Virus record (IMG/VR): IMGVR_UViG_3300025728_000009
Location: 27,286 to 91,285 of that record
Direction: 5' to 3' (one strand)
Origin: a virus
Length of the DNA: 64,000 nucleotides
The notes below the pieces were generated by a model. It worked only from the letters and a program-made list of their open reading frames with translations. It was not told the DNA's origin and did not search any database. Numbering within the stretch: the stretch's first letter is position 1; each line of letters starts with the position of its first letter. Both the position numbers and the translations under genes were made by a program. Positions 59,815-64,000 of the stretch are shown here, piece by piece.

Positions 59815-60159
59815 CTACGCTGTAAACGTCTCACCAATCGCTATAACATGAATTACAGTGCCGTCTGGAACTGTCCTCGCTGTGCTTCCAAGCAATGCCA
59901 AGTTAGCCCAACGTGTACCGTAGCCGGAGGCTGATGTTGTGGTTGGTGCTGTACTCAAACTTGCATCAGCTCTATCGTAAACGTTAGCTGAAGATAGTTG
60001 AGCTGTTGCTTGGACTACAGGAGCACTTACAAAACCTGCCTGAGAGTAATCTACTGTCCAAGCTCCACCGTTAGTGGTGGTTGTTCCAACCCAAATTAAA
60101 GGGGAGCGTAATTGAGCATTACCGCTCCACACAAATGCTGCTGGATGTTCACCTGCCAT
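59815..60159 (-). CDS. small beta-rich virion/fibre-associated protein
   Basis: F..APVV.AT...IAIG; follows fibre gene. Confidence 0.65.
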   Translation of the reverse strand: MAGEHPAAFVWSGNAQLRSPLIWVGTTTTNGGAWTVDYSQAGFVSAPVVQATAQLSSANVYDRADASLSTAPTTTSASGYGTRWANLALLGSTARTVPDGTVIHVIAIGETFTA

Positions 60160-60161
60160 AA

Positions 60162-62039
60162 CTACATGACCTCATATTGAAAGATATAGTAAAAGTCATG
60201 TGCAGCAGAAGATCCTGACACAAACCGCAATGATGTCCTATCTGCCGCCACATCTGCAAGTACTGCTGCTGATTGACCGGCTACTTCTGGACAGACCGCT
60301 GTACCTGCTGCATCTTCTAGACTAAGAAAGTTAGAAGCAATTGGAAGTGACATGCCTAGAATAGTATCTTGGTTGTTACTGGTTGGGTCAATCGATACAC
60401 GCCCGGACACCGTAATCATATTACCAACCCTGTTCCATCTTGCGGGAAACGAGGAAGAAGCTGCAATATTAGCTACGTTAAACAATGTTGGTGTATATGT
60501 ACCAGCAGCTAACGTTGGAACCGTCAGAGTAATATCATTGGCGTTTAAAGTAGCACTGATACCCCCTGTTGCAATAATACTCCTAAACTCAAGATTACCA
60601 ATGCTGTTCTGTTTGTAAACAGCACTACCACTGCCGAGAGAGCTAGCAGACTTTACAGTATAACCTGTGGCTGTAAGATAACTTTGTACGCGACCATCAT
60701 TGTAATAAAGGCTGCCACCTTCAGGAATGTTCGTAGTCGTTAGAGATACGTTTCCAGTGAGGAGGTTAACGCTCTGTACTGGCGCAGCAGCACTGGCTTC
60801 AACAGTAGTTGTATACTGAGGATGGGGATCGACAGCAGCATTGTGCTGAGACATCTTCAAATCAATCGAAGCTTGCTGAGCAGTGGATGTTGGTTTGTTT
60901 GCATCCGACGTATTATCTACGTTACCAAGACTAAGAGATGTCTTAGAGACGACCACATCCCCGAAGGCTCCATTGACCGTGTTTACAACGTCTTCAATGG
61001 CACTTTTACCGAGCTTATTTGGACTGCTCAGCGACTCTAGCTTAGTTTTGATATCAGAGGCAGTGTAAGTATTCTCGGTGATTACATCAACAAAAACACC
61101 CTGCTGAATCATAGCTGTAAAATAAGGGATGTTTGAAGCATTGCCCTTTAAAGAAACTGTGTCAGCATAGATTTCAAATTTGATGAGCATCCCGGTTTCA
61201 AGGTTGAGGGGTGTATCACCAAAAGCAACTACGTTGTCTCCAAGTGTCCAGTTAAATCCACCAAAGCCTTCTTCCCACGCCTGACGACTAGGAAAGTATT
61301 TCAACGCTACGCCATTACTAATAAGGCTGATCTTAGCCCTTACGTTAGTCATAGGTGCGTAGGTGCGGAACTTCAGGGAGTGGCTACGAGCGGTATTTTG
61401 TACTGTGTAGTTAAAGATAAGTGGATTATCTGGGATGTTGGTAGTATCTACACCCTGAGCTGCAAACTCAGCGGCGGCAGTTGTCAAGTAGAAAATATGT
61501 GGTTCTGAAGATGCGGCTGTAGGTGGTGTGTAGAAGTCAACTACGGTGTAAAGATTACCGTTGATATGGTTACTAAGACCAAGGAAACCACTTACTTCGG
61601 AAAGCGTAAGTGCCTCACCAAACGTAATAGAGCCAGATTCTACTGTGAAGCCGGGAGGTGCTAGGATAGCTCCACTCTCAAGCACTCGCATATTAGAACC
61701 AGCGAAGGAACCAGAGATTGTCTTGTAGGGAATTTCACCTACAGGGACATCTATCAACGAGGCAACTTCACCCGGAAGACCTTGAAGAAAAGGAGTGTAG
61801 TCAAACCAAGCACCAGAAAGCCTACCTTGTGCTCTAGTGGTGCTGCCCTCAACTGTCGTATAAGTCAGACGAATGAGATAAAAGCTATTACTATCGTAGA
61901 TAACTAACTTAGATGGATTAGCTGAAAAATAAGTATCTCGTGCAAGTTCTGCTGCTGCTTGGTCAACACCATCAAATGTGTTTTCTGTAGGACCAAGTCT
62001 GTAGCCACCTCGTGTACTAGGAAATTCACTGATAGCCAT
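60162..62039 (-). CDS. fibre-like virion protein
   Basis: LGNVDNTSDANKP.STAQQ, H....DPHPQY, VQSVN..TG.V.L fibre motifs; start MAISEF. Confidence 0.75.
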   Translation of the reverse strand: MAISEFPSTRGGYRLGPTENTFDGVDQAAAELARDTYFSANPSKLVIYDSNSFYLIRLTYTTVEGSTTRAQGRLSGAWFDYTPFLQGLPGEVASLIDVPVGEIPYKTISGSFAGSNMRVLESGAILAPPGFTVESGSITFGEALTLSEVSGFLGLSNHINGNLYTVVDFYTPPTAASSEPHIFYLTTAAAEFAAQGVDTTNIPDNPLIFNYTVQNTARSHSLKFRTYAPMTNVRAKISLISNGVALKYFPSRQAWEEGFGGFNWTLGDNVVAFGDTPLNLETGMLIKFEIYADTVSLKGNASNIPYFTAMIQQGVFVDVITENTYTASDIKTKLESLSSPNKLGKSAIEDVVNTVNGAFGDVVVSKTSLSLGNVDNTSDANKPTSTAQQASIDLKMSQHNAAVDPHPQYTTTVEASAAAPVQSVNLLTGNVSLTTTNIPEGGSLYYNDGRVQSYLTATGYTVKSASSLGSGSAVYKQNSIGNLEFRSIIATGGISATLNANDITLTVPTLAAGTYTPTLFNVANIAASSSFPARWNRVGNMITVSGRVSIDPTSNNQDTILGMSLPIASNFLSLEDAAGTAVCPEVAGQSAAVLADVAADRTSLRFVSGSSAAHDFYYIFQYEVM

Positions 62040-62041
62040 AA

Positions 62042-62311
62042 TTACACGGTATCCTGTGATACGTGGAGACGACCTGTGCCGAAAGCCCAAAGACCTTCAG
62101 AAGCATTCTGGACACTAACAGATTTACCGGGATAAATGAGGAAACCATCACGATCTGATGCCGGAGGAGCTACAGTGGCGATCTGTGCATAAACAGGCGT
62201 AGAGGACTTGTTCTGTAGAATTAGTGGTGTACCAAGGATGATACTGGTAGCTGTATAGATATCTTGATAGACAACACCAAGAAGGTGTACGTCATTTATA
62301 GTTGCCGTCAT
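62042..62311 (-). CDS. hypothetical virion protein
   Basis: GGGGAG SD; G..L.LQNKS. Confidence 0.7.
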   Translation of the reverse strand: MTATINDVHLLGVVYQDIYTATSIILGTPLILQNKSSTPVYAQIATVAPPASDRDGFLIYPGKSVSVQNASEGLWAFGTGRLHVSQDTV

Positions 62312-62597
62312 TGCTTATCTCCCCTAAAGAGATGACCCTTATGGATCTTATTGTTATTGTTACAAAGGGGAATATACACTTCAACTGTGCAAACAGTTGT
62401 ATATTGAATAGTTGACTGATGCCACGCTTGCCTGCATTCAGCCGTGAAGTCCAGAGTGACTTCCTCTCCACAACGAAACATCTAAGATGCTCGTAAATTG
62501 ATGCTTAAGTAGCGATCACACTTTACAACAGGCATCCGCCAGAATGCCGGGGGTGTGGGAACTAGGATTCCCGATACCAGACCGAAGCCTGATTCTT
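62312..62597 (-). ncRNA. structured intergenic RNA or leader
   Basis: about 10 consecutive hairpins incl. a UUCG tetraloop; G-U pairs on minus. Confidence 0.45.
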
Positions 62598-62993
62598 TTA
62601 CTCATCGTCCTCATCTGGTGCTTCATACACCAAGGACAAACGAGGTTTTAATTGAGCTTCAATTTCTTTTGGGGTTTCTTCACCAGCTTCCAAAGAATCC
62701 TTAACCTCAAACTTGAGTTTGTTATAAGAGATTTCTTCAGCGTTAGCTGATTTGGATACTGTCACAATGCTGTTGACCAACCACTTACTAGAACCAAGCT
62801 GCTCTGTATCAATAGATTCACCATTAATACTTTTCTTGATATTCTCAAGAGCTTTATCTTTCATTTCCAGAAGTTGTTCTTCTAGAATGCGAAGTTTGCT
62901 CTTAGTGATACGCTTACTATTTCCACCAGTCGTCTTACGGTTAGATTTACTACCGTTGAAACGTGTTTCTGGACTTGGGTTCTTTCCAGCCAT
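62598..62993 (-). CDS. putative terminase small subunit
   Basis: 131 aa; basic N-terminus, helical core, PRLSL.. acidic tail; head of packaging/structural arm. Confidence 0.5.
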   Translation of the reverse strand: MAGKNPSPETRFNGSKSNRKTTGGNSKRITKSKLRILEEQLLEMKDKALENIKKSINGESIDTEQLGSSKWLVNSIVTVSKSANAEEISYNKLKFEVKDSLEAGEETPKEIEAQLKPRLSLVYEAPDEDDE

Positions 62994-63014
62994 CTGTATT
63001 TACCTATAATTTGT

Positions 63015-63700
63015 GATTTTCTAAAACTAACTCGGCAGGACATAACCTGCAATATTGCTGAGCAAAGAATTAGTTTTAGAAAATCCTCTTGAAACCGATA
63101 GGAGAGGATCGGTCAAAAGGATGAAAGACTTTAGGGAGGAGAGGGAACCTAAGTCTTTAAGATGCTGAAGGAAGAGGAGAGAAAAACTTCAGCGTTTGAA
63201 GACATCAATCTTAAAGGAATTTAGACTTGTATGATGTCGGGTGAAGTAGTTCTGGTATTATGTACCGCCAGAACGGTAACATCATTGTACACACTGGTAC
63301 ACGATATGGTGCCGCATGTGCGGGCTACGGCAGAATTGATAGAATACTCTATTATTTTATGCCCTGTCTTTGCTCCGTGTTCAGCTCCATGCTGACTCTG
63401 CACCGAAGACTCTATGTTCACGTTCAACACTACAAGTCCTTAAAGGAGATTTAACAAATGTCGTCACACTTGAGAGATGGTCTACCATCGTTTTACAACA
63501 AGTGGCTCAGAGGCCGATACAACACAAAGATATGGTTTGTATTTATCAAACAATCTCGTGGAAATGATGCATAAGTTGCAATCACACTTTGTAGATGCTG
63601 CTAGACTTGTATGGCTCTCGTAGTCCACCCTTGTTACTCTAGCATCCCAGTTGAATGGACTGAGCCTACTCGTCAACGTACTACGCCGCGTATGAACGTA
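63015..63700. ncRNA. hairpin-dense non-coding region with repeated CUCUCCU/AGGAGAG loops
   Basis: 16-bp perfect inverted repeat plus many stems; no convincing long ORF. Confidence 0.5.
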
Positions 63701-63709
63701 GTATCCGTA

Positions 63710-63822
63710 TCTGATGTTTAGGAATTGCACCTAACTAGCTAAGCAATACCCTTGGAACATCCACTTTCTACATCCGAGTTGAACGGATCAAGGACAGCCG
63801 CATTCACAACTAAGCACATCAA
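63710..63822 (-). ncRNA. tRNA-like RNA (acceptor stem + T arm, non-canonical body)
   Basis: UUGAUGU/ACAUCAG stem stacked on UUAGG-UGCAAUU-CCUAA; second T-loop hairpin inside. Confidence 0.5.
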
Positions 63823-63873
63823 ATTCTTTTAACAAGTAATCTGAACTGGATTAAACTTCCAATAATTCTCATC

Positions 63874-63926
63874 CCACTGCTTACCACTGCTTACCACTGC
63901 TTACCACTGCTTACCACTGCTTACCA
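63874..63926. repeat. 10-bp tandem repeat (CCACTGCTTA) x5.3
   Basis: perfect direct copies. Confidence 0.97.
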
Positions 63927-64000
63927 ATTAGATCAACTGGCTTAGGACGCAGAGCTTTAAGAATTTCATCGTAACTAGGATTCTTGTATTCCGCCCTATC
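63911..64000 (-). CDS. 3' end of a hypothetical protein entering from the window edge
   Basis: open frame ...DRAEYKNPSYDEILKALRPKPVDLIGKQW stop. Confidence 0.55.
   Translation of the reverse strand, partial: DRAEYKNPSYDEILKALRPKPVDLIGKQW

Follow-up and report, generated by a model that had tools for sequence, protein, structure and literature searches.

A conserved, predicted five-helix RNA with repeated pyrimidine loops between the tRNA region and the structural genes of uncultured phages

The α-r14 sRNAs consist of three hairpins which present an identical anti-Shine-Dalgarno (anti-SD) loop word, CCUCCUCCC, on divergent stems, and their loops redundantly silence target mRNAs at the ribosome-binding sites (PMC10746234). 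This word is ultraconserved in every hairpin loop of the cuckoo RNAs (PMC10746234, PMC8034643), among which the CcsR RNAs are processed out of mRNA (PMC8034643). In the comparisons below, the cuckoo/α-r14 RNAs are represented by Rfam family RF02344 (ar14), with NfeR1 of Sinorhizobium and CcsR1-4 of Rhodobacter as members. Exposed UCCC or CU-rich loops also occur in hairpins 7, 13 and 14 of Staphylococcus aureus RNAIII, in RsaE/RoxS and in Listeria LhrC, where they pair with the SD regions of many mRNAs. The c4 antisense RNA of phages P1 and P7 (RF01695) is released by processing from the leader of the operon under its control and targets a ribosome-binding site through pairing of its loops. 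In addition, stable small RNAs are released from tRNA clusters by the processing of tRNAs, such as the 3′ETS-leuZ sponge of Escherichia coli and the band C and D RNAs of phage T4. To our knowledge, virulent phages have yielded very few regulatory RNAs, and in the literature we found none from a phage that has an array of anti-SD-like loops. In phage PAK_P3, sRNA1 and sRNA2 are abundant late small RNAs in the tRNA region, and sRNA2 contains a T-loop-like 11-mer, no pyrimidine-loop array being reported (PMC4933390).

The DNA analyzed here, termed the window, is a stretch of 64,000 nucleotides comprising the last 64 kb of the 91,285-bp IMG/VR record IMGVR_UViG_3300025728_000009. The final 127 bases of this record repeat its first 127, indicating that the assembly is circular. 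The record represents an uncultured, soil-type phage of the myovirus type with a G+C content of 41%. Its large terminase shares 53% identity with the enzymes of PAK_P1/KPP10-like Pseudomonas phages, relatives of Felix O1, rV5 and Rheinheimera phages appear lower in the list of terminase matches, and PAK_P3 is a distantly related myovirus according to terminase kinship. Upstream of the minus-strand gene for a 131-aa protein and of a minus-strand structural block of ~33 kb lies an 840-bp gap without credible open reading frames (ORFs). Comparative sequence evidence indicates that window positions 63015-63248, minus strand, are a structured non-coding RNA of ~235 nt with five helices, H0 to H4 (Table 1), and this folded RNA accounts for the large "empty" gap in these phage genomes. 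The element occupies the end of the tRNA region of the phage and heads the block of structural genes. We rejected the possibility that this DNA codes for protein, since the stems covary and the loops are conserved.

Table 1 Features of the element and its neighborhood in the window, listed in gene sense.
Feature	Position in window	Strand	Description
Short tRNA-like spacer piece	63251-63312	minus	Directly 5′ of the element; corresponds to 1501-1562 of L029
5′ end	63240-63248	minus	Conserved motif (A)GUUUCACC, CUUCACC in the window; model R1 begins at 63248
H0	63201-63238	minus	Stem of 7-8 bp, loop of ~24 nt; 8/8 pairs compensatory, 98.5% of cells paired
H1	63164-63193	minus	Sense loop UUUUUCUCUCCUCUUC at 63171-63186; 5/6 pairs compensatory
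H2	63124-63158	minus	Sense loop UUCCCUCUCCUC at 63136-63147; 10/12 pairs compensatory
H3	63083-63122	minus	Sense loop CCUCUCCU at 63100-63107; 13/14 pairs compensatory (alignment helices 4 and 5)
H4	63015-63085	minus	Long AU-rich lower stem and two small hairpins around conserved AUAUUGCA
Spacer	62994-63014	minus	Weak ribosome-binding site UAUAGGUAAAU ahead of the next gene
131-aa protein gene	62598-62993	minus	First gene after the element in most, not all, relatives

An initial annotation of this DNA, made from the sequence alone, had described a perfect 16-bp inverted repeat followed by three hairpins with unrelated stems and similar purine-rich loops on the plus strand. Both arms of the repeat can be read directly (GATTTTCTAAAACTAA at 63015-63030 and TTAGTTTTAGAAAATC at 63070-63085), and the three plus-strand loops were confirmed as AGGAGAGG (63100-63107; stem accgat/atcggt), GAGGAGAGGGAA (63136-63147; 11-bp stem) and GAAGAGGAGAGAAAAA (63171-63186; stem gctgaag/cttcagc). 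The inverted repeat is the lower stem of H4, for which 17 pairs were predicted and 13 of them were compensatory in an independent alignment (MAFFT and RNAalifold); the top of H4 is a three-way junction around a AUAUUGCA-like word in the folds of all members. UCUCC is present in the H1 loop, and the base of the H2 stem, AAAGAC/GUCUUU, is conserved in its sequence itself. Two further loops had been counted as members of the array and do not belong there. The GGAA loop near 63216 is the loop of H0, whose UUCC is not conserved in most relatives, and the GGAGA loop at 63445 lies ~200 nt outside the element, whose 5′ end is at 63248. Neither a U-tract nor an intrinsic terminator was found after H4, so that the RNA may stay part of the downstream mRNA. 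The spacer that follows is variable in length and sequence among relatives.

Using the downstream 131-aa protein as the query, ten related viral contigs and two further metagenome contigs were retrieved. The relatives have a common layout although their stem sequences differ: in gene sense, the 5′ word AGUUUCACC is followed by H0, H1-H3 with all-pyrimidine loops, an AU-rich H4, a short spacer and the start codon. Covariance model R1, which was built from two close relatives only, detected exactly one copy per relative and matched the window at 63071-63248 on the minus strand with 61 bits. The family was enlarged by a scan of IMG/VR with a 22-base pattern and R1 to 20 members, 19 of which are distinct. 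All 20 are viral contigs of uncultured phages with one copy per genome, and the 5′ motif is near-invariant among them. In the alignment of the 19 distinct sequences (A6), which was fitted to the model and thereby favors the structure, 97.2% of the stem cells contain standard pairs, and both partners have changed in a compensatory manner in 36 of the 40 stem pairs. In each of five measures, A6 exceeded all 500 shuffles, and pairing fell to 36-46% when the partners were slid by 1-3 columns. Even so, wholesale replacement of a stem by unrelated complementary sequence cannot come from fitting. UCUCC or CCUCC was found in 55 of the 58 H1-H3 loops in single-sequence folds; the loops of all three hairpins are all-pyrimidine with the core UCCUCUCCU and the consensus UCCUCUCCU(U/A), and the number of CU loops ranges from 3 to 5 (L009 and L011). 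Loop conservation together with stem covariation, which the initial annotation had named as a check on its array, is thus present in the relatives. The elements of four contigs, L004-L007 (~3708-3988), are mosaic: L004 and L007 share H2-H3 and differ in H4, whereas H4 is common to L004 and L006 and, in another form, to L005 and L007, and L005 and L006 have a common H3. This mosaic suggests recombination between hairpin modules.

A 461-nt stretch of the region folds better than shuffled sequences on both strands (z = -4.3 for plus and -6.4 for minus), and therefore the folding score cannot assign the strand. In gene sense, the stems of the family contain 50 G-U/U-G pairs versus 5 A-C/C-A cells, and one U-G pair in H4 is conserved in 12 of 17 sequences. 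Since G-U pairs would be mismatches on the other strand, the RNA corresponds to the minus strand of the window; the G-U evidence, originally regarded as split between the strands, favors minus in the family. Moreover, the element begins exactly where a co-oriented tRNA gene ends (…CCA) in L003, L007, L048, L061, L066, L071 and L079, and a tRNA gene is separated from it by a 7-nt gap in L004, which is independent evidence for the gene-sense strand. These sequence data indicate that the transcribed strand is the minus strand.

Both strands of window positions 60000-64000 were searched against Rfam, which returned only a sub-threshold ar14 match, and the same search over 12 related loci returned tRNAs and one group I intron only. 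Three different members were used as blastn queries against 50,697 phage records in search of cultured relatives, and the element itself had no match. The sole match in cultured phages was the 62-nt tRNA-spacer piece, found in Pseudomonas phage Ep020, an Otagovirus from which the element is absent. In bacterial genomes, none of the 80 pattern-matched loci among the matches listed (over 80 for the 22-base pattern) scored with the model. No description of such a phage RNA was found by searching full-text papers. The element is conserved and uncatalogued, without an Rfam family, and the original statement that it is undescribed holds against Rfam 15 and the literature searched.

The closest functional analogue of the phage element is the group of alphaproteobacterial cuckoo/α-r14 sRNAs. 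Two or three hairpins, freely diverging stems and the same pyrimidine, anti-SD-like word in each loop are common to both, and ar14 was the only Rfam family that responded, on the correct strand (minus, 63080-63197). However, with 18.3 bits and E = 2.6, this match falls far short of the gathering score of 58.8. The loop core of the phage element is UCCUCUCCU rather than CCUCCUCCC, and none of the three loops in the window contains the cuckoo 9-mer. Whereas cuckoo RNAs are encoded by chromosomal or plasmid sRNA genes of Alphaproteobacteria, the element is phage-encoded and follows tRNA genes, has H0 and the three-way-junction H4 as extra domains, and has no promoter or terminator of its own that could be detected. 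The design is shared with the cuckoo RNAs, and membership in ar14 fails on score, loop word and host.

Other described RNAs are further away. As judged from general knowledge, the C/U-rich-loop sRNAs of Firmicutes resemble the element in having several exposed pyrimidine loops, but there is no relationship in sequence or architecture, and they are host-encoded, have their own promoters and terminators, and use a C-run motif. The CsrB/RsmY/RsmZ RNAs are likewise hairpin arrays showing one short repeated word, but their GGA lies on the transcribed strand, whereas here the transcribed strand shows the complement; no Csr/Rsm covariance model matched either strand of 60000-64000 at E up to 10. Small RNAs in or next to tRNA clusters share the location of the element, but 3′ETS-leuZ, the T4 band C and D RNAs and the PAK_P3 RNAs are ~100 nt in length compared with ~235 nt here. 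The PAK_P3 pair is the nearest phage precedent; as described in the paper, these RNAs are shorter and different. The c4 RNA, again from general knowledge, is a phage RNA with loops facing ribosome-binding sites, but it uses two specific loops on one downstream target, in contrast to the element, whose loops lack complementarity to the weak ribosome-binding site ahead of the next gene. The Rfam search gave no c4 match.

Judged from its sequence, the RNA probably acts on translation. The loops remain unpaired in every fold, and their sequence complements AGGAGAGGA as well as AGGAGA(G). In this genome, AGGAGA occurs more often than any other hexamer in the 20 nt that precede predicted starts (24 of 152), and GGAGA exceeds GGAGG by ~3:1 in five complete genomes. 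The mean pairing energy of the loops was -9.7 kcal/mol with start regions versus -4.8 kcal/mol with random genomic 25-mers. What counts against an anti-SD role is the loop word CUCUCC, whereas that of the ribosome itself is CCUCC. In four of the five genomes, the loops of each phage paired better with non-structural than with structural start regions (p = 0.04, 0.001, 0.02, 6e-5 and, in the fifth, 0.31), whereas pairing with the 16S tail showed no difference between the two classes. However, loops of permuted order bound start regions nearly as well, the real loops being clearly better in two of the five genomes, and permuted loops reproduced most of the difference between the classes. This difference therefore mostly reflects purine-richness, and the pairing is weak evidence, given that purine-rich SD regions pair with pyrimidine loops of any kind. 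Early-versus-late targeting as a form of specificity was rejected after this permutation control. Thus, of the minus-strand anti-SD proposal made at the outset, the CUCUCCU loops fit the structure and AGGAGA does precede many starts, while the test of preferential pairing lacked specificity; the anti-SD reading is one that we infer from complementarity. The strongest predicted duplex in the genome (-23 kcal/mol) is formed at window positions 4325-4345, minus strand, where 11 nt of the start region CAGGGAGGAGAGAAAGAUUAUG are perfectly complementary to the H1 loop and likewise to the H2 loop. This site precedes a 71-aa ORFan (4109-4324), for which no orthologue was found in five relatives. The genome contains 11-12-nt matches to the element outside its loops just as frequently, and the site is therefore not significant alone.

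By analogy with the three-hairpin α-r14/NfeR1 sRNAs of rhizobia, we tentatively propose, with somewhat less than an even chance of being right, that the element gives rise to a trans-acting, multi-seed anti-SD RNA cut from a tRNA-operon precursor. The RNA would be cut out of this precursor, its 5′ end arising from tRNA 3′ processing and its 3′ end lying in or after the long H4 helix, a plausible substrate of an RNase III-type enzyme. Long perfect helices of this kind are RNase III cut sites in phage polycistronic RNAs. The three redundant loops would then pair in trans with purine-rich ribosome-binding sites (AGGAGA/AGGAGAG) on phage or host mRNAs, and this pairing would block docking of the 30S subunit so that translation is damped or re-timed. 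A broader form of this proposal, which we place on the unlikely side, is that an abundant, tRNA-operon-derived RNA competes for the docking of mRNA to the ribosome: its loops would soak up the strong AGGAGA-type sites of host and early phage messages and shift translation globally to the structural genes with weak SD sequences downstream of it. If true, the virus would encode a switch of translation initiation made of RNA alone.

The element may instead be a cis-acting leader of the long structural operon, which stays on the transcript and controls what lies downstream, an explanation that we consider rather unlikely. The C-rich loops of such a leader could serve to load Rho or to block it, giving attenuation or antitermination; alternatively, the leader could modify RNA polymerase in the manner of HK022 put or protect the 5′ end of the mRNA. 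Indeed, the element is always co-oriented at the head of the ~33-kb structural block, neither a terminator nor a promoter lies between it and the next gene, and the C-rich, G-poor sense strand (C 27% versus G 14%) means that a Rho-binding site fits equally well. However, a strict 9-nt word in three loops exceeds what the loose YC preference of Rho needs. The next gene has a weak GGU/GGUG/GGAA ribosome-binding site with which the conserved 5′ UUUCACC is able to pair in single-sequence folds, but the proposed helix has just 3-5 bp across ~240 nt, and as the 5′ motif never varies, no covariation signal is possible for it. The downstream gene also differs among relatives. A 109-aa protein gene follows the element in L003 and L008, with the 131-aa gene 3 kb further on; a gene for a protein with a tail-fiber N-terminal domain follows it in L071 and L068, and yet another gene in L048. 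With at least four different genes found directly after it, the element appears as an autonomous module rather than the leader of one particular gene. In addition, extra structured inserts of 100-130 nt lie after H4, between the element and the next gene, in L081, L064 and L048, which also argues against a leader.

It is unlikely that the element serves as a protein scaffold or decoy, in which three to five identical pyrimidine loops titrate or recruit a host or phage protein such as Rho, ribosomal protein S1, a KH-domain protein recognizing the 3′ tail of the 16S rRNA, or a phage protein. Multivalent protein sponges are usually built in this way, with identical loops repeated on variable stems, the varying number of CU loops agrees with such a sponge, and other conserved single-stranded words (the AUAUUGCA junction of H4 and the H0 loop) suggest that they are recognized by something other than mRNA. 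Against this, no candidate partner was identified, and the usual neighbor, the 131-aa protein, has no match to an RNA-binding family and its gene is not adjacent in five relatives (L003, L008, L071, L068 and L048). A function at the level of DNA, as a packaging site, replication origin or set of extruded cruciforms in which proteins bind the AGGAGAG words, would suit a large non-coding gap beside the structural and packaging block and the repetition of AGGAGAG, but is very improbable, because the stems are preserved with many G-U wobbles on one strand only, a signature of RNA rather than duplex DNA, and loops of 8-16 nt make poor cruciforms. Scarcely credible is the plus-strand reading of the initial annotation, a sponge of the CsrB/RsmY/RsmZ type that starts at a TATAAT and sequesters a host protein of the RsmA/CsrA family: GGA-containing loops would be exposed on plus and the TATAAT does exist (63005-63010, within a 10/12 promoter match, TTTCCA-16-TATAAT, at 62983-63010), but such matches are not above chance (3 sites versus 3.1 in shuffles), relatives read CATAGGAATA there, the stems would hold 50 A-C mismatch cells versus 5 wobble pairs, the tRNA genes and all flanking genes are oppositely oriented, no terminator was found, Csr/Rsm families gave no match at E up to 10, and with the minus strand established this reading is rejected.

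If the RNA acts on ribosome-binding sites as we propose, it would be an RNA-only viral means to re-time or redirect translation, and the reach of the cuckoo-type design would grow beyond the stress sRNAs of Alphaproteobacteria to include phages. Binding of Rho or another protein would instead make it a new kind of phage decoy. The family merits an Rfam entry under either reading, as the comparative support is unusually clean and the genomic address is fixed.

Several observations concern the surroundings of the element. The 131-aa protein is 78-91% identical across relatives and has no PHROG, Pfam or PDB match, its atlas matches being viral hypothetical proteins only; its AlphaFold model (mean pLDDT 68.5) has a long helical hairpin preceded by a basic, disordered N-terminus. 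In L004-L007, tRNA-Met genes come after the 131-aa gene, and a group I intron (71.5 bits) was found at 7651-7877 of L004 in the structural region. On the tRNA side, ARAGORN called no tRNA in the window. The 62-nt piece at the 5′ side of the element is 92% identical to the unit between tRNA-Gly and tRNA-Val of Ep020, where the copy ends in CCA, and it folds as two small hairpins with no tRNA call. It may be a mini tRNA-like RNA common to unrelated phages, and it hints weakly at a Pseudomonas-like host. Upstream of the tRNA/element array, sigma-70-type promoters were observed at ~3410-3445 of L007, ~3405-3440 of L010 and ~118-150 of L024. These lie 30-300 nt upstream in gene sense and have the form TTGACA-17-CATTAT or TGTATAAT with an extended -10; no equally good gene-sense promoter was seen in the window.

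Upstream of the element, a second conserved non-coding stretch was observed at 63522-63710 of the window on the minus strand, at 686-871 of L008 and at 1488-1615 of L068, the window copy being 94% identical to that of L068 and 82% identical to that of L008. The consensus fold of this stretch contains 38 pairs, 8 of which are compensatory among three sequences only, which makes the stretch a candidate for a further structured RNA of the tRNA region. Finally, five tandem copies of the 10-mer CTTACCACTG (GGTAAGCAGT on minus) are present at 63870-63925, at the stop codon of a 72-aa minus-strand ORF that crosses the circular junction.
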